From a virus (taxonomy: Duplodnaviria > Caudoviricetes): a stretch of 33,437 bases of DNA. The notes under the pieces were generated by a model. The model was not told the DNA's origin, searched no databases, and saw only the letters and a program-made list of their open reading frames with translations. A program made the translations under genes and the position numbers. This document shows positions 3,052-27,716 of this stretch, in pieces. Every line of letters begins with the position of its first letter. Position 1 is the first letter of the stretch. The stretch covers positions 1 to 33,437 of IMG/VR virus record IMGVR_UViG_3300032104_000113; one strand, written 5' to 3'.

Positions 3052-5172
3052 ATGTTTGCAGACCTGATTAACCAACTAGCCAAAACGTATCAGGAGGAAA
3101 GGAAGGGAGACTATTATGCGCGTCCTTCTTCTGCCGGCCCCGAAAAATGTATCCGTGCCCTTGCTTACAACGCTAACGGCATGAAGGGGTCTCAGCTTCC
3201 GGGCCGGGCGATCCTGACGTTTGACGACAGCTCGTGGCATGAGGAATTGACCCTGGATTGGATGAACAAGATGGCATTTTCCAACCATTCGGAACAGATG
3301 CCAGTGGATCTTCCCGCGCCGGGTGTCAATAAATCGGGTCACTTCTGCCGGAGTTGTAAAAAGGATATCCCTCCCGAGACCATTCACGGACACATCGACT
3401 GGATTGCAACAGATCCCTTGATGAACGACTGGCTTGTGGAGCATAAGGCGCTCTCGATGTTCGGATCTCAGAGATGCGAGAAAGAATTCCCCATGGACTA
3501 CCTGACCCAGGCATCAATCTACAGTGCATCTCTGCAAAGGATACAGCCGGATCTTCACCGCGTCATTCTAATAATAAAAAACAAAAACACGGCCCAATAT
3601 ATAGAGTTTGAGTGTGACTACGATGCCTCTCTGGACTGCCTGACCATACACAGACGGATCATCAGTCGCGGAGACGCTCCTGCCGATGTCCATAAAATCG
3701 AGGAAAAAATAGAGAACATCGTCGGGGACGCCCTGCTCAAGTTCAAGGCTATAGACGAGCTGGCCTTGAATCACAAGATTCCTCCTCGCCAGTATGATCG
3801 GGACAGGGATTGGCATTGTGGATATTGCCTCCCCCCCAAGACTAAAATATTAATGGACGATTTCTCCTGGAAAGTGATGGAAAAGATTTCCCCCGGAGAG
3901 TCTATCATCACGTTTACTGAAGAGCGAGAAGGCAAGCATAGGAGAGTTGTTCGGGCTAAGGTTCAAGGAATAAAGTACAGAAAATCAGAGACCATAACAA
4001 TAGAAACCCATAAAGGAAAAATAAGGTGCTCACCTGATCACCCATGGCTCGTACAGGACATCAAGAAGAAGGCCGTGTGGAAGAAGGCTAAAAACATATC
4101 CCCTCGAGACAAAATGTTCTTTCTTGTGAGCCCAGACAGAAACGCTGCCTTCAGCGATGGCTACAAGATTGGATACATTCACGGAATAGTTGAGTGCGAA
4201 GCGCACATAAGGAAATCTCATAATTGGCCTTCAATAAGAGTTGCCGTGAAAGACTCGGTTGCCCTGGATAGATATAAAGATTACTTAAATTATTTCAAAA
4301 TAAAGCGTTCAAGGGGAGCATTTGTTCATCAAAGCCCGACAGTAATGGAGAAGGTTCTTGTCTCAAGCACGGGAATCAACGACCTTCTCGATATCTTAGA
4401 GGAGCCTCTTTCTGGATACGATCAAGCTGCCGGCTACATGGCGGGAATTTTTGACGGAGAAGGGAGCTTGGGCCAAAACAACCTAAGAATATACAATTCA
4501 GATGAAAAGATATTGGATAAAATCCAATGGGCTGCGTCTGAGCTGGATTTGAATTTCCAAATAGAACCATTCTCAAAGCAGGCCGTTAACGTTATCGTCA
4601 AGAGTGCGCGCTTGTACTCAAGAAGGGGAATGGTGTCCATGTTTGAATTTTTTAATAGAACCAGGCCCGCCATAACTAGAAAAATTGACAATTTATATGG
4701 CATGGCTTTTTTTGACGGGTGGGTAGAAATTACCAGCATCTCTCATGGAGGCCCAGAGGTCTTGATAGACATGCAGACTTCATCAAAGACCTTCATCGCA
4801 GATGGGTTTGCATCCCATAATTGCCCATACCTTGAACCATGTTATGAAAATTATGAAAAGGAATTTAATGCCTTGGCTAAGGATGTAGAGATCAACCAGG
4901 ACATGGAGACGGAATTTAAGTACTACCTCCAGTTGGCAGGGGAGGCACGGACATCACAGAAGGCATACGAAGACCTTAGAGATAAGATCAAGGACAGGTT
5001 AAAGGGGGCCGATATTCGTGCCGGAAAGACGAAAGAATATACGGCGAAGATCACTCTTAGCCCCAGGGAAACAGTCGTCAAGGCCCTCATCCCGCCAGAC
5101 CTTCTTCCTAAAGTCACCAAGATCAGCACGTCTGAAAAATTGACGATCAGAAAAATAAAGAAGGATGGTTGA
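3052..5172 (+). CDS. Cas4-like PD-(D/E)XK nuclease containing an intein
   Basis: RPSS..C, GHID, VEHK and QxxxY motifs; after splicing the C-terminus reads CGYCPYLEPC (Fe-S cysteines). Confidence 0.8.
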   Translation: MFADLINQLAKTYQEERKGDYYARPSSAGPEKCIRALAYNANGMKGSQLPGRAILTFDDSSWHEELTLDWMNKMAFSNHSEQMPVDLPAPGVNKSGHFCRSCKKDIPPETIHGHIDWIATDPLMNDWLVEHKALSMFGSQRCEKEFPMDYLTQASIYSASLQRIQPDLHRVILIIKNKNTAQYIEFECDYDASLDCLTIHRRIISRGDAPADVHKIEEKIENIVGDALLKFKAIDELALNHKIPPRQYDRDRDWHCGYCLPPKTKILMDDFSWKVMEKISPGESIITFTEEREGKHRRVVRAKVQGIKYRKSETITIETHKGKIRCSPDHPWLVQDIKKKAVWKKAKNISPRDKMFFLVSPDRNAAFSDGYKIGYIHGIVECEAHIRKSHNWPSIRVAVKDSVALDRYKDYLNYFKIKRSRGAFVHQSPTVMEKVLVSSTGINDLLDILEEPLSGYDQAAGYMAGIFDGEGSLGQNNLRIYNSDEKILDKIQWAASELDLNFQIEPFSKQAVNVIVKSARLYSRRGMVSMFEFFNRTRPAITRKIDNLYGMAFFDGWVEITSISHGGPEVLIDMQTSSKTFIADGFASHNCPYLEPCYENYEKEFNALAKDVEINQDMETEFKYYLQLAGEARTSQKAYEDLRDKIKDRLKGADIRAGKTKEYTAKITLSPRETVVKALIPPDLLPKVTKISTSEKLTIRKIKKDG
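3826..4821 (+). mobile_element. Intein with LAGLIDADG homing endonuclease (332 aa)
   Basis: Starts CLPPKTKILM; block B CSPDHPWL; GYIHGIVECEA and GYMAGIFDGEGS; ends FIADGFASHN followed by Cys+1. Confidence 0.93.
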
Positions 5173-5496
5173 ATTACCTCAAAGATTTGCCTCTAAGATA
5201 CATTACAGCCAAGGCGGGTGTTGGAACTGGACATCGTCAAAAACTCCCTCTGGTTATGGGCTTTACTGGTTCGATGGAAAATACTGGGTGGCCCACAGGT
5301 TCTGTTATTTGATCGTAGTGGGGGAAAGACCTAAAGGTCTTCTTTTGGACCACCTATGCAGGGTTAGAGGATGCGTAAACCCTACCCACCTTATGCTTGG
5401 AGAAAATGCAAGATATGCAATGCCAGGCGTTTCAAAAAGTGGTACGACAAGCGAAAGGAGACAAATGAGATTCAATCGGATAAAAGGCAAGGATAA
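5165..5496 (+). pseudogene. HNH endonuclease remnant with apparent internal deletion/frameshift
   Basis: CWNW..GYG..AHRF.Y..LDHLCRVRGCVNPTHL in the ORF frame; WRKCKICNARR tail in the -1 frame from 5398 to TAA 5494-5496. Confidence 0.6.
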
Positions 5497-6577
5497 GCCT
5501 CAAAACATAATCAGGCTCCCGCGCCTGGGTCGAATCCGCCTCGGGATTAAAAAAGTGTCAGAACGAACTGGCAATCCATTTCCAGTAGAGACGGATTATC
5601 TGGTTTGCCCAGATGAGGTCCGAAAAATACACGGTGAAAGGCCTAGATCTCTCCCCGTTATGCTGCCAGTAGAAGATGAGGCGTTATTTCTAAACCAATC
5701 TTACAGATGCTATAAGTCAAACCATAGAATGCGGTGCCATGGAAACGGTGAGACGGCTGAACGTATCACCGAAGATGGGAAATGGAAGGAAGATATTAAA
5801 TGTCCTTCTCCTCCCGACTGCGAATACGGTCAAAAGCATAAATGTAAATCGATGATGGACTTAATGGTTGTCCTTCCAGCAGTCAATATGGGAGGGGTTT
5901 ATCAAGTCAGCACTGGCTCCATAAATGCAGACATAGATATACGTTCAGGTATCGAGATGGCCAAGTCTTTGTTCGGCAGGATTTCATGGACGCCCATGAA
6001 GCTATCCAGAGAAGAGATGATGATACCTGATCCTGAGACAGGCAAAATGCAAAAACATTGGCCATGTCGGCTCCACCCTGTGGCAACAATGGACCAGGTG
6101 AATAAGATTAGGGAGGACACAAAAAGGATTATCGAAATTCAGGGAAACTATGTCCTTGCAGAACCCGAAATAGAAGCAACAGAGCCTAATACCACCATCC
6201 AGATAGAAGAGCTTCCCGCAGAAGAGCTCTCGCAGACGCCCATGCACACTGAGTCCGTCTCTGGAGCAACAATAACAGCCGAAGTTGTCGAGGCCAAGAC
6301 ATCCGAGCCAGATAAGGCAGCGGAATCTTTTGCCTGGACAACCCCGGATATGGGTAAGGACTATGCGGACTACCTGAAGGGGATGAGCGCCATCAAGGAA
6401 CAGTTGAAGAAGGTGACGGGAGACGATTCAACCTATTACATGGAGCTTGCCAAAATCACGAAGGATATGCCTAAAGGTCCCTTTGAGCACGCGAACAAGA
6501 TGAGAAAACTGGTCTTCAGGAAGGAGGCCTTTGACTACCTAGGCGGCATCGCCATGGTGGTGTCTCAGGGAAAATAG
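5465..6577 (+). CDS. Recombination directionality factor-like (Gp3-like) protein
   Basis: Own RBS AAGGAG and ATG at 5465; LPRLGRIRLGIKK..PVETDY, C.G.GE.A, Cys cluster, GVYQVSTGS. Confidence 0.7.
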   Translation: MRFNRIKGKDKPQNIIRLPRLGRIRLGIKKVSERTGNPFPVETDYLVCPDEVRKIHGERPRSLPVMLPVEDEALFLNQSYRCYKSNHRMRCHGNGETAERITEDGKWKEDIKCPSPPDCEYGQKHKCKSMMDLMVVLPAVNMGGVYQVSTGSINADIDIRSGIEMAKSLFGRISWTPMKLSREEMMIPDPETGKMQKHWPCRLHPVATMDQVNKIREDTKRIIEIQGNYVLAEPEIEATEPNTTIQIEELPAEELSQTPMHTESVSGATITAEVVEAKTSEPDKAAESFAWTTPDMGKDYADYLKGMSAIKEQLKKVTGDDSTYYMELAKITKDMPKGPFEHANKMRKLVFRKEAFDYLGGIAMVVSQGK

Positions 6578-7294: not shown

Positions 7295-7691
7295 ATCATT
7301 CCTTCACAAAAGAAGGGCCTTGGCTTCGTGGAGGATTTTTACTTTGCGACACACGCCTCTCATCTTTCGGACTGGAGTTGGTAGGATGGCAATGGGAACC
7401 TCGATAGGACAACCCTCCGGCCTGCCGAAATCCGAACGGGGCCGAAGATGCACAACCCATCATCATGCTTGTGATTGCCGTGAGGCCAAGTTTCAAAAAA
7501 TCGTAATCCAGAATTGCTCTATGCGGGATTTGTTGGAGGAAGTATGCCCTCAGCTATCGGGTCAAAATTACGAACGTGTGAAGCTGTTTTTGAAGGGGAT
7601 TAAGGAGTGAGATGTCGATTATTTCCACCACGCAATGGCGAGGAAAAGAATAGGAAATGTCATGCCGTTATTTGAAAGGGCGGGCGGGTGA

Positions 7692-8483
7692 ATGAAAGTA
7701 GGATCACTCTTTTCAGGCGGTGGACTTGGCGATCTTGGCTTTATGATGGCCTGGATGGAGATCGGATTTCAGGTTGAAATCGAAGATTATTGCCAGAAAA
7801 TACTCAAGCTCAGGTGGCCGGGTGTTCCGAAGTGGAAGGACATAAAAGATGTCAGAGGAGCGGACCTACCGCCAGTTGACATTATCACCGGAGGGTTTCC
7901 TTGCCAGTCCTTCTCAGTCGCCGGACAGCAACGAGGCAAGGAAGACAGCCGCTCTTTATGGCCGGAGATGTTTAGAATCATACGAGAGCTTGGGCCGCGA
8001 TGGGTCGTTGGCGAGAATGTTCCTGGAATCATCGGAATTGCGCTCGACGATGTTTTATCTGACCTGGAGTCTGAGGGCTACGAAACAACGACGCTTGTAT
8101 TTCCGGCTCATGTTGTCCCGCCCCAAGTTCCTCACCGAAGAGAACGGGTGTGGTTTGTGGCCCACACCGGCATTAATGGACTCGGCGAGCGACAAGAGGC
8201 GGCCGGATTACAAAACTGCGAACAAGATGTTGCCTACGCCGAAAAACCGGGATTGGAAGGGCCAGACACAGAGGGGGATGTACAAACAGGAAGATGGCCT
8301 TCCGAATCAAGATCGAGGAGATGGGAAGTGCATTGGCGGGAAGCTGAATCCCGAATTTGTCGAGTGGTTGATGGCAGTCCCAACCGGGTGGAGCGACTTA
8401 AACTCCTCGGAAACGGCCAGGTCTGTAGTGTCACGGCTTGGATTGGACAAAGGATCATGGAGCATGAAAGGGCAGGCGGGTGA
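7692..8483 (+). CDS. DNA (cytosine-5) methyltransferase, main polypeptide
   Basis: SLFSGGG, GGFPCQ, ENVPG, HRRERVW and RLKLLGNG motifs. Confidence 0.92.
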   Translation: MKVGSLFSGGGLGDLGFMMAWMEIGFQVEIEDYCQKILKLRWPGVPKWKDIKDVRGADLPPVDIITGGFPCQSFSVAGQQRGKEDSRSLWPEMFRIIRELGPRWVVGENVPGIIGIALDDVLSDLESEGYETTTLVFPAHVVPPQVPHRRERVWFVAHTGINGLGERQEAAGLQNCEQDVAYAEKPGLEGPDTEGDVQTGRWPSESRSRRWEVHWREAESRICRVVDGSPNRVERLKLLGNGQVCSVTAWIGQRIMEHERAGG

Positions 8484-8653: not shown

Positions 8654-10332
8654 ACCATCCAAAAATACCTTCCATTGGAACAACACAGAACGGTCGCTTG
8701 TTGATCGACATCCCCCGCTTGATGGAGACGCGTCTGTTGATCCAGTCCAATTCCGGTGGGGGAAAGTCGTGGGCGCTTCGTAGAATACTGGAGCAATGCG
8801 CCAGCTTTGTTCAGCAAATCATTTTAGATTCTGAGGGGGAGTTTGCAAGCCTCCGAGAGAAATTCGACTACATCATCGCAGCGCCCCACGATGCGGACGC
8901 TCTGGCCAACCCCCGTACCGCCGCTTTGCTTGCACGGCGCCTTCTCGAGACCGGCGTGTCGGCTGTGATCGATATCTACGATATGAAAGCCCACGAGCGT
9001 CAGGCCTTTGTCAGAATTTTTATGGAAACCCTCGTCAATGCTCCTAAAAAGCTGTGGCATCCCGTCATGATTGTACTGGACGAGGCACATGTTTTTTGTT
9101 CCGAGCGTGGAAAATCAGAGAGTTCCGACGCCGTGATCGATATCGCGACGAGGGGAAGGAAGCGCGGCTTTTGCCTGATCGCCGCAACCCAACGCCTGTC
9201 TAAACTTCACAAAGACGTTGCCGCCGAAATGGGCAATAAAATGATCGGACGGACGGGCCTGGATGTCGATATCCGGCGTGCCGCAGATGAGCTTGGCATG
9301 ACCTCACGGCAAGCCTGGGAGTCTCTACGGGATCTTCCTCCAGGTGATTTTTACGTTTACGGCCCCGCACTCTGCGGCCAAGTCACCCTGGTTACGGTTG
9401 GATCTGTTGTTACGAGACATCCCAAGGCCGGACAACGGTTTATGACCGCCCCTTCGCCTCCGTCAGAAAAGATTAAAAAGGTTCTTTCCGAGCTTGGAGA
9501 TTTACCGAAGGAAGCAGAACAAGAAGCCAAAACCTTGTCTGAGATGAGAACCGAAATCACACGGCTTAAAAGAACGCTCAGTCTTTCTCAAAAGAAGGCG
9601 CTCAAGATGGGCGTACCGGAGTTGGAGGCTAAGAGGCGCGAAAAGAAGGCCGTAGAGGATGCAATCATAAATTTAAGGAAGGATGTTAAAGACAATAACT
9701 CCAAGAAATTTGTGACCTCTTTAAATAAAATTGTGTCTATTGCTACAGCCACCCTGAACGGCAGAGGCTCTACCCCTGACCGGCCCTCTTTAGTCGGAAG
9801 GCAATCAAATGACTTTCAGAAGCATGTTGTAGCCCCTGCCGAGAAACTTGCATCGCTAATAGGCTTACGAAGTGGGGCGGTTCGCATTCTTCAGGAGCTC
9901 GCCGCACGTTATCCTGCCGGCTATTCAAAATCTCAGGTCGGCACACTCACAAAGTTTAGTCCGAAGGGAGGCACCTTCAATACCTATTTGGGTGATTTGA
10001 GGCGATCCGGATTTATAGAGTCTCGTCTGGATTTGATCTACGTCACGGAAAGTGGGATTGAGTCCTTGGGAGACAGGGTTCCGAATGCTCCGACCTCCCA
10101 TGAAGAGGTCATGGCATTGTGGCGGAAGTCTCTGAGGGCCGGCGCCTATCGGATGCTTGAAGGGATTGTGAGTGCCGGAGAGAATGGGATATGCCGTGAG
10201 GACATTGCCATTCAGGTAGGCATGGAACGGACAGGCGGCACCTTCAATACCTACTTGGGAGACCTCAGAAGAAATGGATTGATCACGGAAACAACTGGCG
10301 TCTCTGTTGCAAGCGATGTTCTGTTTCCGTGA
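8650..10332 (+). CDS. HerA/FtsK-family (DUF87-like) ATPase with tandem C-terminal winged-helix repeats
   Basis: Walker A SNSGGGKS, DSEGEF, Walker B IVLDEAH, RGRKRG, ATQR; GGTFNTYLGDLRR occurs twice. Confidence 0.85.
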   Translation: MNHPKIPSIGTTQNGRLLIDIPRLMETRLLIQSNSGGGKSWALRRILEQCASFVQQIILDSEGEFASLREKFDYIIAAPHDADALANPRTAALLARRLLETGVSAVIDIYDMKAHERQAFVRIFMETLVNAPKKLWHPVMIVLDEAHVFCSERGKSESSDAVIDIATRGRKRGFCLIAATQRLSKLHKDVAAEMGNKMIGRTGLDVDIRRAADELGMTSRQAWESLRDLPPGDFYVYGPALCGQVTLVTVGSVVTRHPKAGQRFMTAPSPPSEKIKKVLSELGDLPKEAEQEAKTLSEMRTEITRLKRTLSLSQKKALKMGVPELEAKRREKKAVEDAIINLRKDVKDNNSKKFVTSLNKIVSIATATLNGRGSTPDRPSLVGRQSNDFQKHVVAPAEKLASLIGLRSGAVRILQELAARYPAGYSKSQVGTLTKFSPKGGTFNTYLGDLRRSGFIESRLDLIYVTESGIESLGDRVPNAPTSHEEVMALWRKSLRAGAYRMLEGIVSAGENGICREDIAIQVGMERTGGTFNTYLGDLRRNGLITETTGVSVASDVLFP

Positions 10333-10555: not shown

Positions 10556-10873
10556 ATGCCCAGAAAAAAGAAACTACCCTACAAAGAAATGTACGAAAAC
10601 GAAGTCAAAGACCATGCCATAACGTCAGAGAAAGTAAAAAATGTTATCAGGAATCATGAGGACACTTTAAAAGATTTCAAGGCTTGCAGTCGTGCCTTTG
10701 GTGATATTACGAAAAAGAATAACAAGCTCAAGAAAACATTGGGCGTTCTGAGATGGCAACTGGGGTTGATAAAAAGCATTTCCAGCAAAGAAGAGATTGA
10801 GAAAGGACAAGTAGAAAGTGTTTCGATGGTTTATAGTTTTCCCACCGAGAAGGCGCCGTGCAAGAGAATCTAA
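10556..10873 (+). CDS. Hypothetical coiled-coil protein
   Basis: GAGGAG RBS, ATG, heptad-like pattern. Confidence 0.55.
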   Translation: MPRKKKLPYKEMYENEVKDHAITSEKVKNVIRNHEDTLKDFKACSRAFGDITKKNNKLKKTLGVLRWQLGLIKSISSKEEIEKGQVESVSMVYSFPTEKAPCKRI

Positions 10874-17094: not shown

Positions 17095-17280
17095 ATGGAA
17101 GATTCCGAGGCCTTGATTGGTATGAAGACCATCGCCGATTATCTTGGCGTTCACGTGGACACGGCCCGAAAGTATGAAAAGAAGGGGATGCCGATCAACC
17201 GGTCTTCCGGGACACCCATGATGACGAAACGTGCGATCGACCTTTGGGTGGCGGGGGGAAATAGAGGAAGACAGGATTAA
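17095..17280 (+). CDS. Small HTH DNA-binding protein
   Basis: GMKTIADYLGVHVDTARKYEKKGMP. Confidence 0.75.
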   Translation: MEDSEALIGMKTIADYLGVHVDTARKYEKKGMPINRSSGTPMMTKRAIDLWVAGGNRGRQD

Positions 17281-17315
17281 GAAAACTAACCCGATCGAAT
17301 CTCCGGAATATTGAT

Positions 17316-17732
17316 ATGCCTCCTGATAGACCCGCCCGCCAACCCTTCGGGGATGCCTCTCCTTATTCAAAGCTGACCACAAAACAGGTTCTTGAGATCA
17401 GAAACGCCACCTGGATTTCTCAGCGGAGGCTGGCGGATAAATACGGCGTGAATCAGTCGACCATATGCCGTATCAGGATCTACCGAAAAAGAAAGCATGA
17501 TGGTGACGGGGAATCTGTTCAACACACCAAGGCCCGGATTATTGCCCTGGCCGACAAGGGCCCTTTCTCGGATCGTTCTCTGGAGACCCTGTTTAAGGGA
17601 TTGGTCTATGAGTGCGGCTACGCCCTGGACCAACTGATTAAGGAAGGTCTCATCGAAGTCTACAAAAGGCCGGCCATGGGAAGACCCCATTTTTTTGTTT
17701 ATCGCAAGACAAAAGCCAAAAATCTCTCCTAA
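17316..17732 (+). CDS. HTH protein
   Basis: SKLTTKQVLEIR..SQRRLADKYGVNQSTICRI, like the DNA-binding tails of HNH endonucleases. Confidence 0.6.
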   Translation: MPPDRPARQPFGDASPYSKLTTKQVLEIRNATWISQRRLADKYGVNQSTICRIRIYRKRKHDGDGESVQHTKARIIALADKGPFSDRSLETLFKGLVYECGYALDQLIKEGLIEVYKRPAMGRPHFFVYRKTKAKNLS

Positions 17733-19459: not shown

Positions 19460-20949
19460 GCCTTTTAAATATTCTGCAAACACCTTGGGCGATTACTCCG
19501 GATAAGTTTGCACAGATACAGGAGGTCATCAACCGACACCTGAGTGGAGATAAGCTGGATGTCCTGGAACTTAAGAAACACGATTACGGAGACAAGAAGA
19601 AGGCGCGTCTTCCTTTTGATTCGATCGACGGCGTTGCAATTATTCCGATCGATGGCGTCATTTCCAAGAAGATGAATTTGCTCCATGAAACCAGCGGGGG
19701 CGTTTCGACGCAGCTCCTCGGTCGCGACTTCAGGGCTGCCGTAGATGACTTGAGGATTAAAGGCATCATCCTGAGCATTGACAGCCCCGGCGGGACGGTA
19801 GACGGGACGTTTGAGTTTGCGAATATTATTTTCGAGGCCAGAGGGAAGAAGCCCATCGTCTCGTTTTCCGACGGCGTCATGGCATCGGCCGCTTACTTAT
19901 TCGCCGCCGCCACGGATCGTGTTTTTATCTCGGGAAGGACTGTTCAGGTCGGATCTATTGGTGTCGTTTCAACCCATATCGATAAATCCGAGGCCGAGAA
20001 GAAAGCGGGGATTAAAATCACGGAGATCGTGGCTGGGAAATATAAGCGCATGACGTCTGAGCATGAGCCATTAACCGCAGAGGGCAGAAAAGTGATCGAG
20101 GAGATGGTCGATGACGTCTTATCGGTCTTCGTTTCAGATATTTCAAAGTTCAGGGGCGTATCTGAGGAAAATGTTGTCCAAAACATGGCCAATGGCCGCA
20201 TGTTCATGGGACAGAAGGCGATAAAGGCCGGCTTGGTTGACGGCATCATGACGTTTGATGAACTGGTTTCAAAAATGGCGGCGGGGGAATCCCCGGGGTT
20301 TCAAATCACAGTCAACAAGGAGGTCGAGGCAATGGATATTACGAAGGCGTTTATCTCGGAGAAGCATCCGGAGATTGCCGCAGCATTGAAGGCAGAAGGA
20401 TTTGATGCGGGTTTGATCAAGGGAAAACACGATGGTTTTAATGAAGGCAAGGAAGCGGCGTCAAGTGAAGCCTCCTCTTCAGGATTCAAAGACAGTGAGG
20501 AATACAAGGCATTGATGGGAAAAAACACGGAGATGGAGAAGACCATGGAAGGGTTGAAGTCGATTTGCAAGGACCAGTCTAAGGAACTCGCGATCATCAA
20601 GGAAACTTCTCAGGAAGCCCTGGCGAAAAGCCTCGCACACTCCGTTCTCAAGGCGTCTTCCATTCCGAGCGACCTTCACGAAAAGGTTTCTTCGATGGTC
20701 GACTACCGCAAATACATCAAAGAAGGCGAAAGTTTCGAGCCCGGGTCTGCGTCTGCTCAAGGCTACACAGAGGCGGTCGCCTCCGAAGTGAAAGACTGGG
20801 AGGCTAGACTTGGAAAATCCCATGGCATCGGCCTCGAGAGCGGGAAAGATGACTTTACCGATATCAGCGCGTCCGAGAAAGAGGATGCCGAATATGCAAA
20901 AGGCCTCGCCCGATCTATCTCGGGAGGAGCGATTCGATCTGACGAGTAG
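19456..20949 (+). CDS. S49 (SppA-like) prohead protease with C-terminal scaffold region
   Basis: IDSPGG, MASAAY, VGSIGV, AGKYK, AGLVDG; coiled-coil C-terminus. Confidence 0.9.
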   Translation: MSLLNILQTPWAITPDKFAQIQEVINRHLSGDKLDVLELKKHDYGDKKKARLPFDSIDGVAIIPIDGVISKKMNLLHETSGGVSTQLLGRDFRAAVDDLRIKGIILSIDSPGGTVDGTFEFANIIFEARGKKPIVSFSDGVMASAAYLFAAATDRVFISGRTVQVGSIGVVSTHIDKSEAEKKAGIKITEIVAGKYKRMTSEHEPLTAEGRKVIEEMVDDVLSVFVSDISKFRGVSEENVVQNMANGRMFMGQKAIKAGLVDGIMTFDELVSKMAAGESPGFQITVNKEVEAMDITKAFISEKHPEIAAALKAEGFDAGLIKGKHDGFNEGKEAASSEASSSGFKDSEEYKALMGKNTEMEKTMEGLKSICKDQSKELAIIKETSQEALAKSLAHSVLKASSIPSDLHEKVSSMVDYRKYIKEGESFEPGSASAQGYTEAVASEVKDWEARLGKSHGIGLESGKDDFTDISASEKEDAEYAKGLARSISGGAIRSDE

Positions 20950-21007
20950 TACGTTTCCTGCTTGAACATACGAATGGGAATCAAAAGAAAACAGGAGGAA
21001 CAAAAAA

Positions 21008-21637
21008 ATGGCTAAGAACCCATCAATGACAGTGCCCTTTGTGAATCAGGGCGGTAAGGAGTCCGTGATCGGACGCCCAGGACGGTCGATCCCGATGACA
21101 TTGCTTGGGGACCGGATCGGAACGGCAACATCCAAGGAGAAGGTGACTGCGCCCAGGCTCTATGCGAGGTTGACGGCCTCTCCGTTTAAGGCCCGGCCTT
21201 TCATGGAAAACGCGGTCATCAGCGCCATCACCAATTCCATTAACGCGACGGCGAATATTCCCGATGCGGATGCGATCAAGTTCAAGAATGGTGACAATTG
21301 CAATTTCTACGATGTCAGTGCCAATGGTCTGGCCGGAGAGTCTTTACCAATCAATACGGTTGGGGCAGCCGGTTCCGGCGGTGCGGGTCTGACCCTGATC
21401 ACCTTTACTGGTGTTTTTGGGACGCCCCCGATCGCGAATGATTTTATGGTGGTTGCCGATGGGTCTGAGCTTTCCAAGAACGCCGTTGTCGTCCTGGAAG
21501 AGATCGAGTACGACGGCAGCACGGAATTCCAGACACCCGGATTCATCGACGGCGCCTACAACAAGGCGGAAGTAGAGAATGTGTCCAGGTTTGATGCGAC
21601 GAAGAACTCCGCAATCGAATTGATCGATATGCCATAA
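21008..21637 (+). CDS. Probable head decoration protein
   Basis: Position between protease and capsid, as for lambda gpD; AGGAGG RBS; beta-rich. Confidence 0.55.
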   Translation: MAKNPSMTVPFVNQGGKESVIGRPGRSIPMTLLGDRIGTATSKEKVTAPRLYARLTASPFKARPFMENAVISAITNSINATANIPDADAIKFKNGDNCNFYDVSANGLAGESLPINTVGAAGSGGAGLTLITFTGVFGTPPIANDFMVVADGSELSKNAVVVLEEIEYDGSTEFQTPGFIDGAYNKAEVENVSRFDATKNSAIELIDMP

Positions 21638-21649
21638 GGGTTCTGAACC

Positions 21650-21802
21650 ATGCGGAATGAGGACATTCTCAAGGCGTTCTGCGAGATGGTACGGGAGGGA
21701 GCCCTGAAGGATGCGACCGGGGAGTTTTCCGTGAACATGCTGAAAGGGTCTCTTTCCAGGAAGATTGCGAAGAAGGAGTACGTGACCTTAGACGATCACT
21801 AG
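21650..21802 (+). CDS. 50-aa small protein, YezD/DUF2292-like pattern (below ORF track cutoff)
   Basis: MRNEDILKAFCEMVREGALKDATGEFSVNMLKGSLSRKIAKKEYVTLDDH: helix, then G-x-F-x-V, G, basic strand. Confidence 0.55.
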   Translation: MRNEDILKAFCEMVREGALKDATGEFSVNMLKGSLSRKIAKKEYVTLDDH

Positions 21803-21823
21803 ATTGTAAAGATCATTAAATCA

Positions 21824-21898
21824 TAACGGGACCACCGATTTCGACGCCCGGCGCCACCTCTTTATTGGGGTGATGCCGGGCGTTTTTTGTTGGGGTCC
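21824..21898 (+). promoter_or_regulatory. Leader RNA element copy 1 (attenuator-like, includes intrinsic terminator) upstream of major capsid
   Basis: TAACGGGACCACCGA-TTT-CGACGCCCGG...CCGGGCGTTTTTTGTT-GGGGTCC; GC stem plus U tract; repeated at 26070. Confidence 0.8.
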
Positions 21899-21918
21899 AT
21901 CAGAGGAGGAAACAATCA

Positions 21919-23166
21919 ATGACTGGACAGGAGCTTTTAAAACTGCAAGAGGCAAGAGTGTTTCGTCCTACCGTGATGGACACCGTCATCAACGAACTGG
22001 TGCCGCCACCGGACGCCTTTCTCCTCACGGATGCCTTTCTTCCATTTAAGCTGGTCGACAAGAACGTGGTGATCGACTTGATCCAGCACGGCGCGTTCGG
22101 GAGGACCAACCCCGTGAACCTGGGGGCCGACCATAAAAAGATCGGCATCACCGGGAGCGAATACAAAGAACACACCCCGGGGCATTGGCGTGAGGCGGTT
22201 GAGTTTAACGAAGACGTCTTGGCCAAGGCGGTCGACCCCGCTCGTCCGACCACACTCTGGGGGCAGGGCTTGGTGACCAAGGCCCTGGATCTTATGGATC
22301 TCAGGCTGAACAATCTGATCGAGTACGTCACGTCAAAGATCGTCATTGACGGCAAGTATTCCGAATCCCGCTTCGGGGTGAATTACACCTACGACCCCAA
22401 GATCCCGGCCAAGCTGCTTGAAAATGTGACCACCACGAGTCGATGGATATCCGGTGGGGCCTGGCCGGCGGCTGGAAGTGCGACCCCGATCATTGACATC
22501 ATGGAGGCCTCCAATCTGTTGCGGAGATTTGGAATTGTTCCTGAAGAGGTGCTGATGTCCGTGAAGACGGCACAGGACTTCCATAATTCGACCGAGGTTC
22601 AGAACAAAATCAAGTCTTCTTTCCAGATCGTTGGAAGGAACGCGGACATCGAGTCTCAGTTTGAGACCCTCACCGGTCTTAAGATGCGTCGGGACAACCG
22701 CTTGTATGCTGAAGAAACAACCTTTTCAACCGCTTCTTCGGCCACGGATACAACCCTGGATGTGGTCGACGCCTCTGAGTTTGCCGTGAACGATTTCATC
22801 ACACTCAGAAACGGATTGGGAGAGGAGGAGGAGCGCAAGATTTCCGGTATTTCCGGAAACGTGATCACGATCCTCGCAACGACATTTGCATACAAGATCG
22901 GAGACCGAGTCACAGCCATGAAGCAGTTCCTCCCAGATGATTATTTCATCATCAAGGGCCGGATATCTGAGCGCTCCAACCCTAACAACTGGCTGTCCAC
23001 GCCTTCTCTCGTGAAGGGGAACAACTGGAAGAATCCTCTCCCGGGCCGATACACATGGCTTAAATTTACCAGTACTGTTCCTTACAAACTGGAGATTGGT
23101 GCCGGCATCGATGGCGGACCCAAGGTCAGTCGTGCGACCTGGATGAGGGTGAAGACTGTAGCGTAA
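21919..23166 (+). CDS. Major capsid protein (lambda gpE-like)
   Basis: GAGGAGG RBS; size, position and the W....ATPIIDI / VLMS pattern of the gpE family. Confidence 0.85.
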   Translation: MTGQELLKLQEARVFRPTVMDTVINELVPPPDAFLLTDAFLPFKLVDKNVVIDLIQHGAFGRTNPVNLGADHKKIGITGSEYKEHTPGHWREAVEFNEDVLAKAVDPARPTTLWGQGLVTKALDLMDLRLNNLIEYVTSKIVIDGKYSESRFGVNYTYDPKIPAKLLENVTTTSRWISGGAWPAAGSATPIIDIMEASNLLRRFGIVPEEVLMSVKTAQDFHNSTEVQNKIKSSFQIVGRNADIESQFETLTGLKMRRDNRLYAEETTFSTASSATDTTLDVVDASEFAVNDFITLRNGLGEEEERKISGISGNVITILATTFAYKIGDRVTAMKQFLPDDYFIIKGRISERSNPNNWLSTPSLVKGNNWKNPLPGRYTWLKFTSTVPYKLEIGAGIDGGPKVSRATWMRVKTVA

Positions 23167-23211
23167 GAGGTCTTAACGGACAGACACGCTGATTCATGAC
23201 AAGGGAAGGAG

Positions 23212-23517
23212 TTGATCGTGGAACATATCAAAATCAACGTCCGTCTCCTGGGCCGATATCCCGGCATGGTCATCGGAGAGGACGACAAGTATTTTAAGGA
23301 CTTCAAGAGGTGGGCCGAGGATGAAGACCGTTATGCCGGAAGGCTGATTTGTACGATGGTTGATAGTCCGGATGCCGATGCGCACACAGAAAAAACAGAC
23401 GAGAATCCTGGACCCGACGATCCGAAACCCATCGTAGATGACCCGAATTCTGATGGGACATCAGGGGATGAGGATCCTGTGCTGCAAGAGGGTGGGGACC
23501 CGAAAGACCCAGAATAA
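23212..23517 (+). CDS. Hypothetical protein with acidic tail (gpFI-like position)
   Basis: Follows capsid gene; AAGGAG RBS. Confidence 0.55.
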   Translation: MIVEHIKINVRLLGRYPGMVIGEDDKYFKDFKRWAEDEDRYAGRLICTMVDSPDADAHTEKTDENPGPDDPKPIVDDPNSDGTSGDEDPVLQEGGDPKDPE

Positions 23518-23531
23518 AAGGCGAGGGATAA

Positions 23532-24053
23532 ATGTCACATAAGACGTTTTCGCTCGATCAGATCAAGTCGCTTGTCTTGAACCAGGTCAATGCCGTCAAG
23601 GGCCTCTCCGAAAAGTTTACGTCTGGGCAGGCTGGAGAGGCCTACGACGAGGCGACCCGTGAGATCGGGTTTGAACTTCCGGCCGCATCCGACACGGACG
23701 TTGAGATCAAATACCAGTGGATCATCGAGCGTATGCGGCGGTGGTTCCTGTTTCAGCTCTACAACCAGCACATACTTCGCTTCGATATCTCAGACCTGCG
23801 TGCCGGTCAGGTTGTGAGAAACCTGGAGAAGGCGATCAAGGGCATGGACGACCGCTTCAGGTCCGCCCGGGAAGAACAGGCCACCGCACATCTCTTCATG
23901 AAGGCAGCCGACGTGTTTGGAAACGATATGGTCCTGACCTCGGGTTTTTTGGAAAACGCTATGGGCAAGGATATCAGCTTCCTGGGAAATGATACGAAGG
24001 CTAAAAGGCCGAAGCAGCCCAAAGCAACACAGGACACGATTGATTCTCTGTAA
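23532..24053 (+). CDS. Probable head-tail adaptor
   Basis: Helical protein at the expected position; synteny only. Confidence 0.5.
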   Translation: MSHKTFSLDQIKSLVLNQVNAVKGLSEKFTSGQAGEAYDEATREIGFELPAASDTDVEIKYQWIIERMRRWFLFQLYNQHILRFDISDLRAGQVVRNLEKAIKGMDDRFRSAREEQATAHLFMKAADVFGNDMVLTSGFLENAMGKDISFLGNDTKAKRPKQPKATQDTIDSL

Positions 24054-24064
24054 AGGGGGTCGCG

Positions 24065-24664
24065 TTGGCGACAGCATCGATTGTCGATGACACGATAAAG
24101 ATGGCGGGTAGGCCCATCACGGTTCTGCGTTCCCCTGTGAACCTGAGCACGTTTTTTTGGCAGGGGACCTTGAACAGGAAGGGCCTTGAGCCCACCCGTT
24201 CTTATGAGCGCTTCTATCTCATGCCCTCGGACGCCGGGGTTGTAGAAGGGGATCTGATCCAGGATGGAACGGACTTTTTCCTGGTGATGTCTCTCTCTAA
24301 GGAGGGGGAGTTCGGAGAGACCTGGGCCTTTCAGGGCACGCTTTATAAGACGAACAGCTTGGTGTCGGTCAACACGTATAACGAAAGCACGCAGGTCTTT
24401 GATCCGATCAAGACCGGTGTGAACTGCCTGATCACTCGGGCCCATGCGTTTCGAGGCGCGGAAGACGATATGGCCGTGGCCCTGTCGTCTGCACGGGGGC
24501 GGGGATCGCTCTGGACGGTCTACGCCAGGGTATCCGAAGGCATTAACAAGGACAGTATTCTTGTCGATCAGGCCGGCCGGGAGTGGCGCGTCTCTGCCGA
24601 CTCGGACCCGTCAGTGGTCTCGGGGGTATTGGTGGCGGACGTCATGCTTGGGAAGGGATTCTGA
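24065..24664 (+). CDS. Probable head closure/neck protein
   Basis: Beta-rich; synteny only. Confidence 0.5.
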   Translation: MATASIVDDTIKMAGRPITVLRSPVNLSTFFWQGTLNRKGLEPTRSYERFYLMPSDAGVVEGDLIQDGTDFFLVMSLSKEGEFGETWAFQGTLYKTNSLVSVNTYNESTQVFDPIKTGVNCLITRAHAFRGAEDDMAVALSSARGRGSLWTVYARVSEGINKDSILVDQAGREWRVSADSDPSVVSGVLVADVMLGKGF

Positions 24665-25212
24665 TGCTGAGAGGCACGATCGATACCACGGAATGGGATG
24701 ATGTCTACGCAAGACTTTTGTCCAGCCTCAAACCCGATGTCTTAAACCGGGTCGGGTCTAAGGTCTTGGCCGATCGCATGAGAAAGACCTATGATTTACG
24801 GTGGAAACAGGCTTACCCCCAAGGGAACGTAGGGGTATATGCTCAAAAAAAAGCTGACCTTGGCTTGCCTTCGGGGAAACTCACGGGCGCCTCTCGTGAG
24901 GCCATTTCTTCTGAAGCCGACGCAAGTCAGGGCAGGGTCTTTTTGAAGGGTGTGTGGCCCGGGGCAAGCCTGGGAGACCCATTTTCAGACTTTGAGCCCG
25001 AGTCGTTTTTAACAAAAACATACGGCGGTGAACGGACACGCTTCGCCGTGGAAGGTGAAATCAAGTGGTTCGTTTTATTTCCGGAGGACGATCTTATTAT
25101 TGCATCGGCGATTGACGCCCTTGTGCGGCTTTTTATCGACCCCAAGAGAGGTGTTTCCCAAGAGCTTGCCGAGGTTTTGATCGGAGAGAACATTAACACA
25201 GACGATATCTGA
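24664..25212 (+). CDS. Probable neck/tail completion protein
   Basis: ATG overlaps upstream TGA; synteny. Confidence 0.5.
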   Translation: MLRGTIDTTEWDDVYARLLSSLKPDVLNRVGSKVLADRMRKTYDLRWKQAYPQGNVGVYAQKKADLGLPSGKLTGASREAISSEADASQGRVFLKGVWPGASLGDPFSDFEPESFLTKTYGGERTRFAVEGEIKWFVLFPEDDLIIASAIDALVRLFIDPKRGVSQELAEVLIGENINTDDI

Positions 25213-25220
25213 GGTCACCG

Positions 25221-25664
25221 ATGAGTGCGACGACCGTTCGAGACGCATTGCTGACGCAACTTCAAGCCGATACGGCACTGGTCTCGGAGTTTACGGCACC
25301 TCAGATCAAGAAAGGGGTGGAACTCAACTTTGACATCAAAGCGGCGACGAAGGGGCTTCGTCTTGCGATCACGGCCTCGGACCAAGAGTTGGTCGATATG
25401 CTTTCAAAGCGGGTCAATGCGTCCTATGCCTATCTGGTCCTGGCCTATTTCTACGAGACCAATCCTGAAAATGTCGATGACAGGATGAACTTGTATGACG
25501 AGATTATCCGGGAGGGAGTTGAAAAAATACTGGATATCGGGATCGAAGGCGCCAGGGTCAGCATAGGCCAAACCAAATACTCCCAGCATCCGAAGATTGA
25601 GAACCTTTATTTTGTGGTCATTCCCGCCCTGATCAAGGTTCGGGAGACGAGAGGGGCCAGGTGA
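25221..25664 (+). CDS. Probable tail terminator protein
   Basis: 147 aa alpha/beta pattern ahead of the tail tube gene. Confidence 0.55.
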   Translation: MSATTVRDALLTQLQADTALVSEFTAPQIKKGVELNFDIKAATKGLRLAITASDQELVDMLSKRVNASYAYLVLAYFYETNPENVDDRMNLYDEIIREGVEKILDIGIEGARVSIGQTKYSQHPKIENLYFVVIPALIKVRETRGAR

Positions 25665-25909
25665 TCCGGTGCCGGTGTCGGAAGGTTATTTTCGACGGCC
25701 TGATATTAAAGATGAGGGTGGGACAATTCGCCAAAGGGTATTTCAATATTAAGTGCCCGCAGTGCCGGTTTTGGATGAACGGTTTGACGATTAAATATTT
25801 AACTGGGGAGATCAAAGAAGACCTGGACTTTTCTAAAAAACAAGGAGGCACAATTCATGAATCACAAAGACCATATCAAGGCCATCTTGAAAGATGTGTT
25901 CCGGGGTAA
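25661..25909 (+). CDS. Com-like zinc-finger protein
   Basis: IRCRCRKVIF...IKCPQCR resembles the Mu Com pattern (IRC..C.KLL...IRCPRCK). Confidence 0.6.
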   Translation: MIRCRCRKVIFDGLILKMRVGQFAKGYFNIKCPQCRFWMNGLTIKYLTGEIKEDLDFSKKQGGTIHESQRPYQGHLERCVPG

Positions 25910-26015
25910 GCTGACGGGGAAGGAATCCCTTGAAGATTATCTCAACAGGGCGTCGGATCAGATTCTTTCTTACGTCCCGGGCCCACTGACCAAGAAGGAA
26001 CAGGACACAAGATAA
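25857..26015 (+). CDS. 52-aa hypothetical protein (below ORF track cutoff)
   Basis: AAGGAGG RBS; MNHKDHIKAILKDVFRGKLTGKESLEDYLNRASDQILSY... Confidence 0.5.
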   Translation: MNHKDHIKAILKDVFRGKLTGKESLEDYLNRASDQILSYVPGPLTKKEQDTR

Positions 26016-26069
26016 AGAGGTATTTTATTGATGAGTCGCCCTGGAACAGGGCAATGAAAACTTAATTTT

Positions 26070-26143
26070 TAACGGGACCACCGAATACGACGCCCGGGGG
26101 AGGTTTTAGAAGACCTTCTCCGGGCGTTTTTGTTTTGGGTCCC
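26070..26143 (+). promoter_or_regulatory. Leader RNA element copy 2 (attenuator-like, includes intrinsic terminator) upstream of tail tube
   Basis: TAACGGGACCACCGA-ATA-CGACGCCCGG...CCGGGCGTTTTTGTTTT-GGGTCCC. Confidence 0.8.
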
Positions 26144-26158
26144 TATCGGGAGGAAGAG

Positions 26159-27307
26159 ATGGCAGAGGCCTTAGTCAATAAAAGCACGCTGGCAGTGAAA
26201 CTGGAGTCCATTTACGGGCTCGATCCCACCATTGCGGTTGGCGATGTCATCGAAGCCGCCGGCGTTCCCAACCTGAACAATGAATTTGAATTAAAGGAGA
26301 GGACGGTCGTCAAAAACACCTTCTCTACGCTGGAATCGGTTCGCGGATCGGAGTCTGCAAGTGGGGAAATTCCTGTCGAACCGAAGGGCAGCGGGACAGC
26401 AGGTGTGGCGCCGGATGCCGATGCGCTCTTTGAGGCCGCGATCGGGATCAAGACCGTGACGTCGGCCAGCACTACGAACGCCACAGCGGCATCGGCTACC
26501 ACCGTTGTCGAACTCGTCGCCGGAGGCGTTGCGGCGATGGGGATCGTTGTGGGAGATGCGATTTATCTGCCGACGGTCGGGACCGGAGAGGTGGTCTGGG
26601 TGATATCTATCGCCACAGACGCATTGACCGTGAGCCCCGCACTGAGTTCGGCTCCTGGATTGGGCGTGGCCGTGGGCGCAGGCGTTCATTACAAATTGAG
26701 CAACGCCGGCCTGAAATCGTTCTGGACCGAGTTCTGGCGCGGCGACATCACCAAGGAGACCTACCCCGGGAACACGGTGGAGTCTCTTGCCCTGAACTTT
26801 AGTACGGGAGAAATAGCGACGGCCGTGATGAGCCTGCAGGGACAGAAAGCGCTTGCCCCCGTTACAGAGGCTTACGGTCTGGGAACGCCGGTGTTCGACA
26901 GCACGACGCCCATTGTGGCCGTGAACATGGTTCTCACGGTTGGCGGGGTGAGCACGCCCCTATCGGCGCTTTCCCTGGAACTTGCCAACACCCTGCTTCG
27001 AAAGATGGACATGACCACGTCCGGAACGCAGAAGATTCTACAGACCAAGAGGAAGCTCACGGGCTCGTTCAATCTCCTGTACGAAAGCAAGGCCATCGAA
27101 GACGATTTTCAGGCAGATACCAAGTCCGAGATCCGCATCGTGGGAGGGTCCGTTGCGGGGAACATCCTCGCCATCAGACTGCCTCTGGTGCGCTACACGG
27201 CCACCCCGAAGTCGGACGACAGCGGGACCTTTAAATATGACGTGGCGTTCGAGGCCGTCCCGTCTTCTGTAGGAGACGATGAGCTGACTTCCTATTCGTA
27301 CCTTTAA
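26159..27307 (+). CDS. Major tail (tube) protein
   Basis: GGGAGG RBS, ATG at 26159; VKLESIYG, ASGEIPVE, RKLTGSF; precedes chaperones and tape measure. Confidence 0.8.
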   Translation: MAEALVNKSTLAVKLESIYGLDPTIAVGDVIEAAGVPNLNNEFELKERTVVKNTFSTLESVRGSESASGEIPVEPKGSGTAGVAPDADALFEAAIGIKTVTSASTTNATAASATTVVELVAGGVAAMGIVVGDAIYLPTVGTGEVVWVISIATDALTVSPALSSAPGLGVAVGAGVHYKLSNAGLKSFWTEFWRGDITKETYPGNTVESLALNFSTGEIATAVMSLQGQKALAPVTEAYGLGTPVFDSTTPIVAVNMVLTVGGVSTPLSALSLELANTLLRKMDMTTSGTQKILQTKRKLTGSFNLLYESKAIEDDFQADTKSEIRIVGGSVAGNILAIRLPLVRYTATPKSDDSGTFKYDVAFEAVPSSVGDDELTSYSYL

Positions 27308-27365
27308 AACGGGAGACGTACCCTTTTACGGTATAAGCCTATAAACCAGGAGGAGGTATAAAGGC

Positions 27366-27716
27366 ATGGCCATCACAGCACTCTCAAAAAGAGAACGAGA
27401 CTACGTTCTTAAATGCGATCGCGATTCAAAAGACCCCACGGTATTCAAACTGAGGAGCCTGGACCGGTTTGAGTCCGCCGAAGTTCAGAGGAAGATCAAA
27501 GACCCTCAAAAAGAAAATGCCTCAGACCTCATTGACAAGTACCTTTCTCAGGGCCTTATTGGGTGGACGAACCTGAAGGACCCTGATGGGGAAGAGGTCC
27601 CATTCTCAAACGATAACCTGCGCCTTCTCGGATTCGATTATTCCAATGAACTTCTTCTGGAAATAACGGGAGCGGTTTCTCCGGAAGAAGAAAAAAACTC
27701 CGTCAGGCAGTCCTGA
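27366..27716 (+). CDS. Tail assembly chaperone (gpG-like)
   Basis: LIGWTNLKD..GEEVPF pattern; ends at a slippery site. Confidence 0.8.
   Translation: MAITALSKRERDYVLKCDRDSKDPTVFKLRSLDRFESAEVQRKIKDPQKENASDLIDKYLSQGLIGWTNLKDPDGEEVPFSNDNLRLLGFDYSNELLLEITGAVSPEEEKNSVRQS

Follow-up and report, generated by a model that had tools for sequence, protein, structure and literature searches.

Twin terminator-type leaders before the capsid and tail tube genes of a phage, and a Com-like protein that may gate them

Hundreds of capsid and tail tube subunits, as against a few minor proteins, are produced from a single late phage operon, a difference mostly credited to ribosome-site strength. The late operon of lambda is antiterminated by Q, which passes the hairpin between genes D and E, and the lambda sib/tI element holds a terminator inside a longer duplex that forms only on read-through and acts as an RNase III/processing site 3′ of the gene it controls. 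In the ribonucleic antiterminator (RAT) of the BglG/SacY type, a small alternative fold overlaps the 5′ arm of the terminator. The Com protein of phage Mu, according to PMC6483171, is a sequence- and structure-specific RNA-binding activator of translation; its target is a hairpin loop, CC-N2-3-GAG, closed by a C-G pair, and it opens a structure that hides the start of mom. Here we describe two similar RNA leaders in a 33,437-nucleotide linear virus fragment (IMG/VR record IMGVR_UViG_3300032104_000113, 33.4 kb, about 43% complete), below called the window, one before the major capsid gene and one before the tail tube gene of an uncultured phage (W). The element is real. As for its function, control of the leaders by a Com-like protein of the phage ranks first among the readings weighed here and ordinary terminators rank second, both tentatively.

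Twin leaders before the capsid and tail tube genes

Both copies of the element lie where the original prediction had placed them (Table 1), ending 20 nt (capsid, copy 1) and 15 nt (tail tube, copy 2) before the ATG. Their first 28 nt are identical at 26 positions, and their 3′ parts have in common CCGGGCG, a U run and GGGTCC. The apical parts in between (24 nt in copy 1, 22 nt in copy 2) are unrelated in sequence and still paired in both, as had been claimed. With up to three mismatches allowed, the 15-mer of the element occurs just twice in the window, and a filtered terminator scan found the two copies to be its sole strong intergenic plus-strand terminator-like sites. A Logan contig of run X1, possibly the source of the fragment and so not independent of it, spans positions 20900-27500 unbroken with zero differences. 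The run of the record, which may be the source of the fragment, is labelled as a marine sediment metagenome.

In both copies a GC-rich hairpin is immediately followed by a U run, as in intrinsic terminators (energies in Table 1); a terminator pattern scan lists copy 2 only, because of bulges in the stem of copy 1. The best fold of the whole element is a single long hairpin of -47.7 kcal/mol in copy 1 and -46.1 kcal/mol in copy 2 (z of -8.6 and -7.0; equally good shuffles, 0/200). This supports the view that terminator-type leaders stand before the two highest-copy virion genes. For a virion to be assembled, transcription has to get past a strong terminator some 35 nt ahead of the capsid start codon.

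The pairing of GGACC with GGUCC beyond the U tract, which had also been foreseen, is predicted in both copies and is better than in 200 of 200 shuffles of the 5′ flank. This outer helix encloses the U run, with its 3′ side 5 nt ahead of the Shine-Dalgarno (SD) site, and is predicted to free the ribosome site. If the 5′ arm is taken away, the first three SD bases become less accessible: in the tube gene their unpaired probabilities of 0.35/0.29/0.19 fall to 0.01/0.01/0.03, and in the capsid gene those of 0.88/0.41/0.50 fall to 0.83/0.11/0.24, since the freed UCC(C) is predicted to pair with the ribosome site.

Selection on structure, which had been read from the variable parts, is a different matter. 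The apical pairing is indeed kept, but of the 16 pairs that can be aligned between the copies 14 are invariant, one is changed on both sides and one on one side. With a sample of two sequences, selection on structure is a tentative reading, and the likeness of the copies may come from a recent duplication.

The element matches no described RNA family: the Rfam 15 covariance models gave zero matches on either copy at E values up to 10, in agreement with the original prediction. In viral contigs, the exact 5′ pattern had no match, the inner stem pattern had 72, none with the 5′ segment, and all 23 matches of the 15-mer lacked the 3′ half. Genome contigs yielded at least 120 matches of the 15-mer; among the 80 examined, none had both halves. 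Searches of annotated phages with blastn and tblastn gave nothing useful. The family search that had been suggested, with a covariance model built from both copies (R2), failed to find a significant third copy in 523 kb of related records. With filters off, six of its nine weak matches (E 0.65-8) were plus-strand leaders before genes of relatives, and a seventh was the opposite strand of one such leader. So far the exact motif thus appears to be private to W. A literature search revealed no account of leaders of this kind, nor of virion genes controlled by a Com-like protein, a weak negative, as subscription and older papers were thinly covered.

Related phages keep the position of the hairpin and not its sequence. 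Capsid and tube searches, together with 20 retrieved stretches, gave 13 readable capsid leaders and 10 readable tube leaders; the closest proteins to the window capsid are 68-83% identical, and genome contigs held no capsid relatives. Of the 13 capsid leaders, 8 (L078, L079/L083, L081, L084, G001, G003, G004, G005) have a hairpin followed by a U run, 26-38 nt ahead of the start, as do 5 of the 10 tube leaders (L082, G001, G002, G004, G005). Such a hairpin is missing from the capsid leaders of L003, L077, L080 and G002 and from the tube leaders of G003, G006, G007 and L086; L076 has a hairpin without a U run before the capsid gene and a weak one before the tube gene. The same type of hairpin precedes the presumed decoration gene in L083, G002 and G004. 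Capsid genes were called by PHROGs in G003-G005 and by position only in G001 and G002, as was the tube gene of L086. Among more distant tube loci, just 1 of 53 distinct leaders has such a hairpin (73 of 79 loci were kept, six with matches beginning deep in the protein being dropped, and merged to 60, of which seven belong to the close group). Some relatives (L003, L077 and L080) carry a terminator after the capsid gene and none before it, the opposite of the window, which has one before and none after; terminators 3′ of the capsid gene were seen at L003 8273, L076 6438, L077 8287, L080 8332 and L084 2709.

For group tests we picked 18 leaders from the scans, leaving out the two of L076. Pairs of leaders within one phage score above pairs from different phages (p 0.0002, or 0.0024 when the window is omitted; the 5′ side by itself gives 0.018), and base composition within a genome may add to this likeness. 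Twin pairs with a shared stem base and a different apex were found in G004 (decoration, capsid), G002 (decoration, tube) and G001 (capsid, tube); the three leaders of L083 and the tube leader of G004 show no twin likeness. The latter aligns to both helices of the window element with other letters, at an E value of only 0.65. The capsid leader of G003, classed as a provirus, matches the 15-mer at 11 of 15 positions with nearly the same spacing (p 0.03), and its TAA is a stop codon; this match may be a weak hint of a sequence signal.

A Com-like gene and the proposed switch

An open reading frame (ORF) that ends 160 nt before leader 2 appears, from sequence comparisons, to encode a Com-like zinc ribbon of the CCCC type. 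Six homologues align on the four cysteines, and 44 representatives match their profile. In hhalign, the family profile matched Mu Com at 90%, and at 94.7% with 39 sequences (E 6e-8); in a control run Mu Com scored 93%, whereas the best of 20 unrelated Cys4 ORFs reached 52% (median about 4%). Two of the 39 family members match gpCom (phrog_13819, best E 5e-4), and the first ESM Atlas match of the ORF is a "Com family" cluster (score 0.92), which we treat as a lead only. The protein model is confident (predicted local distance difference test, pLDDT, 95). The family has about ten more residues between the cysteine pairs than Mu Com. Fold searches with the zinc-finger model returned nothing at E <0.6 or Z >2.8, and a PDB sequence search nothing under E 0.17. 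The closest orthologue to hand, in L082/L083, is 62% identical. Two further zinc-ribbon genes were seen in relatives: a different four-cysteine ORF directly before the presumed tube gene of L086 (12884-13186), a phage without hairpins before these genes, and a second zinc-ribbon ORF 3′ of the tube gene in L091 (9677-9889).

These results allow us to propose, with less than even confidence, that the two leaders are intrinsic-terminator hairpins gated by this Com-like protein, whose binding to them is a proposal only. Each leader can form, by sequence and folding, a hairpin of about -32 kcal/mol whose U run is 32-36 nt away from the start codon. At the beginning of the late phase, the majority of transcripts would stop there and little capsid or tube protein would be made, while minor head and neck proteins and the Com-like protein itself would accumulate from leak-through. 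The protein would then bind the shared 28-nt segment and RNA polymerase would read on. In the read-through RNA, the 5′ GGACC is predicted to pair with GGUCC past the U run, which would bury the U run and free the ribosome site from a short anti-SD pairing. The outcome would be one positive-feedback switch for both bulk proteins, acting on termination, translation or both. A gated leader, as first suggested, is a plausible idea, with a candidate RNA-binding regulator of the phage encoded beside one of the leaders.

The distribution of the gene is consistent with this proposal. The Com-like family is present in six of the seven phages with such leaders (W, G001-G004, L082/L083) and was not found in G006, G007 and L076, which have no U-tract leaders (Fisher p 0.015; 0.09 when the other zinc finger of L086 is counted). 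The likeness of leaders within a phage is what is expected of a site that changes with the factor of its phage. In addition, a hexaloop of the Com type, closed by C, sits on the 5′ arm of the terminator in the decoration leader of G004 (full) and the tube leader of G001 (near match). The rule used for such hairpins (a stem of 3-4 bp and a loop C-N2-3-GA closed by C-G) recovers the site of Mu itself.

Several observations weigh against the gated reading. The phages compared are related and their counts not independent; G005 has both leaders and no Com-like gene in its 18.9-kb fragment (31% complete), and L086 has its different zinc finger before the presumed tube gene and no leaders. The PF10122 cut-off is reached by no member (best E 0.23, in one of six core members), and this family is absent from the first 25 of the 29 families listed for the 39 members. 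The window leaders carry CC-ACC-GA and no C-G-closed hexaloop of the kind bound by Mu Com, and a loose, post hoc version of the hairpin rule is satisfied by 9 of the 18 leaders and by 39 of the 148 control terminators (p 0.05). The three leaders of L082/L083 share nothing with the window motif or with one another, and their flanks show no trace of the 15-mer. Since the Com-like gene lies 3′ of the capsid leader, the model needs leak-through or an internal promoter. Lambda, too, has a hairpin before its capsid gene, and this one is not known to need a local factor beyond Q.

A broader version of the Com-gated reading is unlikely to hold in full. According to it, the Com-family zinc finger, described so far only as the translational activator of mom in Mu, would act here on virion genes, both as an antiterminator with site specificity and as an activator of translation; every phage in the group would have matched leaders (decoration, capsid, tail tube) changing in step with its Com variant, and the feedback switch would first delay and then amplify the bulk structural proteins. 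The word AACGG, found in all four spacers flanking the capsid and tube genes of the window (p about 0.008, post hoc), would mark additional sites for this protein. In none of the relatives does a word recur four times in this way, and we regard AACGG as a possible, weak hint of a sequence signal.

Should the Com-gated reading be correct, a Com-like opener of terminator leaders standing before the bulk genes only would be a distinct and testable mechanism by which the stoichiometry and timing of the virion are set. It would also give Com-like genes a role far from mom and add orthogonal protein-RNA pairs to the Com/com tool set.

Other explanations of the leaders

The most serious competitor, itself somewhat doubtful, is that the leaders are ordinary terminator or stabiliser hairpins of the late operon that work with no dedicated local factor, one copy being a duplicate of the other. 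They would stop leaky transcription of bulk genes in the prophage or early phase, being leaky themselves or passed by general late antitermination, and the read-through duplex would be an RNase III/processing site or protect the mRNA end. The long duplex is by far the best fold, hairpins with a U run occur with unrelated sequences at the same junctions of the relatives, and the provirus status of G003 fits as well. The spacer between lambda D and E (L309 2099-2124) likewise has, immediately ahead of the major capsid gene, a shorter hairpin followed by U7. Moreover, the 3′ signature of the element (GCCCC..GGGGCTTTTTTATT) is, judged by its letters, that of plain terminators: its consensus pattern has 81 distinct viral matches, just 26 of them with a gene start close behind, five of these being head or tail genes.

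Published cases also bear on this explanation. Many phage terminators are read through (bioRxiv 2022.03.18.484859), stem-loops at 5′ ends can stabilise (PMC7509114), and intergenic stem-loops set transcript ratios within one operon of C. cellulolyticum, although those raised the upstream gene (PMC4423207), whereas the genes upstream of the tube leader are low-copy. Ordinary terminators also leave unexplained why the whole apical stem was replaced beside 26 of 28 kept 5′ bases, and why the leaders co-occur with a Com-like gene. A Q protein for general antitermination (PF06530, the one Q family searched) was found in none of five partial records, and the outer helix is not a clear trait of the family (it reaches significance in 7 of the 18 leaders and in 15 of the 81 control terminators, p 0.11). 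If ordinary terminators were nevertheless the answer, the locus would be a tidy case of terminators copied within a genome.

It is improbable that the shared 5′ segment is a DNA signal, such as an activator site or a late promoter, that transcription begins near GGGACC and that the long hairpin serves as a protecting stem at the 5′ end. Phages commonly have additional late promoters in front of capsid and tail genes, and an AT-rich stretch, TTAA.T..TAAC, is conserved before both copies. The pattern ATTAAATCATA(A/G)CGG also recurs in an early-region spacer (2017-2031), with 14 of 15 letters matching the stretch before leader 1; none of 100 shuffles had two matches of this pattern, which was chosen afterwards. 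On the other hand, a sigma-70 scan found no site at either leader, and a transcript begun at GGGACC would run into a strong terminator about 60 nt later. The upstream letters shared in G002 differ by 10 nt in spacing between its copies, and the complementarity of the 5′ GGACC to the 3′ GGUCC in both copies is a trait of RNA or of a hairpin.

A small mobile or host repeat, similar to a repetitive extragenic palindrome (REP) or a miniature inverted-repeat transposable element (MITE), inserted twice and without a function for the phage, is more improbable still. The element is an imperfect inverted repeat, and the capsid copy is accompanied by a 50-aa ORF that relatives do not have. However, none of the 15-mer matches in viral contigs, nor any of those examined in genome contigs, is a copy, both copies have the same orientation and a fixed distance to the start codon, and relatives hold hairpins at these places too.

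The least credible explanation is a BglG/SacY-type RAT: the small 5′ hairpin on which the likeness was founded (CGGG/CCCG, CG-N4-CG) is predicted to be the first to form in nascent RNA and takes four bases of the terminator's left arm, but it is weak (-6.2 and -5.8 kcal/mol; z of +0.8 and +1.2, no better than shuffles), costs about 18 kcal/mol when imposed, and has no Rfam match. Of 67 unrelated viral GACGCCCGG terminators, 30 give a fold in which four of the first six stem bases, at the foot of the 5′ arm, are paired. Only 5 of the 18 leaders of the phage group have a bulged hairpin overlapping the terminator, and the fold is not conserved among relatives. CAT_RBD, which the host might also supply, was found in none of five phage records (43-72% complete), whereas the control was detected in 4 of 14 genomes.

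Genomic setting and comparison with known systems

The late operon around the leaders is of the siphovirus type, with terminase, S49 protease and tape measure genes. The two small ORFs upstream of the leaders do not appear to be paralogues: they gave no BLASTP alignment and no homologue (atlas score 0.83).

Table 1. Positions of the leaders, their parts and the neighbouring features in the window.
Feature	Position	Strand	Basis or remark
Leader copy 1, 5′ of major capsid gene	21824..21898	+	sequence, folding
Copy 1, conserved 5′ segment	21824-21851		
Copy 1, terminator-type hairpin	21843-21884		-32.6 kcal/mol
Copy 1, U6	21883-21888		
Copy 1, outer helix	21829-21833 with 21894-21898	+	folding
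Leader copy 2, 5′ of tail tube gene	26070..26143	+	sequence, folding
Copy 2, conserved 5′ segment	26070-26097		
Copy 2, terminator-type hairpin	26089-26128		-31.6 kcal/mol
Copy 2, U5-G-U4	26127-26136		
Copy 2, outer helix	26074-26079 with 26138-26143	+	folding
Shine-Dalgarno AGGAGG, capsid gene	21904..21909	+	5 nt 3′ of outer helix; sequence, accessibility
Shine-Dalgarno GGAGG, tail tube gene	26149..26153	+	predicted pairing with UCCC if the 5′ arm of the outer helix is missing
Com-like four-cysteine zinc ribbon, 82 aa	25661..25909	+	conserved residues 1-58; candidate trans-acting regulator
Major capsid protein, 415 aa, lambda-E-like family	21919..23166	+	phrog_29 E 7e-12; PF03864 E 5e-4 (under cut-off)
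Tail tube protein, 382 aa	26159..27307	+	PF18906 E 5e-21
Presumed head decoration protein	21008..21637	+	by position between S49 protease and capsid; no family match
50-aa ORF between presumed decoration gene and leader 1	21650..21802	+	inserted; no homologue; absent from relatives
52-aa ORF between Com-like gene and leader 2	25857..26015	+	similar ORF in L082 by eye
Short echo of leader 5′ motif (TAACGGA..ACG), tentative	23174..23188	+	spacer 3′ of capsid gene
Short echo (AAACGGGA GACG), tentative	27307..27318	+	right 3′ of tube stop codon; small hairpin before tail chaperone gene

Elsewhere in the window, we observed a perfect 19-nt inverted repeat (8929-8947 and 10846-10864, 1898 nt apart), with one arm inside the gene of a 560-aa HerA/FtsK-like ATPase and the other at the end of a 105-aa ORF (10556-10873). 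A 19-nt direct repeat (18/19; 7673-7691 and 8465-8483) flanks a C5 cytosine methylase gene, as if this were a cassette. Behind a Cas4-like exonuclease with weak intein and LAGLIDADG matches (3052-5172) comes a fusion of an HNH domain with a Gp3-like one (5165-6577). Two small helix-turn-helix-like ORFs (weak matches) lie between the large terminase and presumed portal genes (17095-17732) and are possible late or excision regulators.

Among described stem-loop systems, the cip-cel operon with its selective RNA processing and stabilisation (PMC4423207) resembles the window in having intergenic stem-loops at the borders of the high-copy subunits of a complex. There, however, 28 of 33 stem-loops lack a U run, and the stem-loops raise the upstream gene, whereas those of the window have a U run and precede the high-copy gene. 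In the RAT comparison, the fold is at chance level and unconserved, and five partial records gave no CAT_RBD match.

Lambda offers two partial parallels. Between D and E, a GC hairpin with a U run stands directly ahead of the major capsid gene in a lambda-type head module, as in the window. The lambda hairpin is short, the entire spacer folding at -14.5 kcal/mol, lacks a twin in front of V and belongs to a Q-controlled operon; the five partial records of the window group gave no Q match. As in sib, the window terminator is predicted to extend to a longer duplex on read-through; unlike sib, which stands behind its gene, it stands before the ribosome site.

The likeness to Mu Com/mom (PF10122; PMC6483171) concerns both the protein and its setting. 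The Com-like ORF is a small four-cysteine ribbon with the pattern I-x-C-x(1-2)-C ... I-K/R-C-P-x-C-K/R, and it is a late-operon gene just upstream of a structured leader able to hide a translation start. In Mu, mom overlaps com, whereas in the window a 52-aa ORF and the tail tube gene lie downstream of the Com-like ORF, the leaders proposed as targets belong to the capsid and tube genes instead of mom and carry a terminator with its U run, and the hexaloop C[C-N2-3-GA]G is absent from them. Because the target hairpin and mom are both missing, the window is not a member of the Mu Com/mom system. By analogy, and with the same reserve as the Com-gated reading itself, it would work like Com/mom joined to a terminator.

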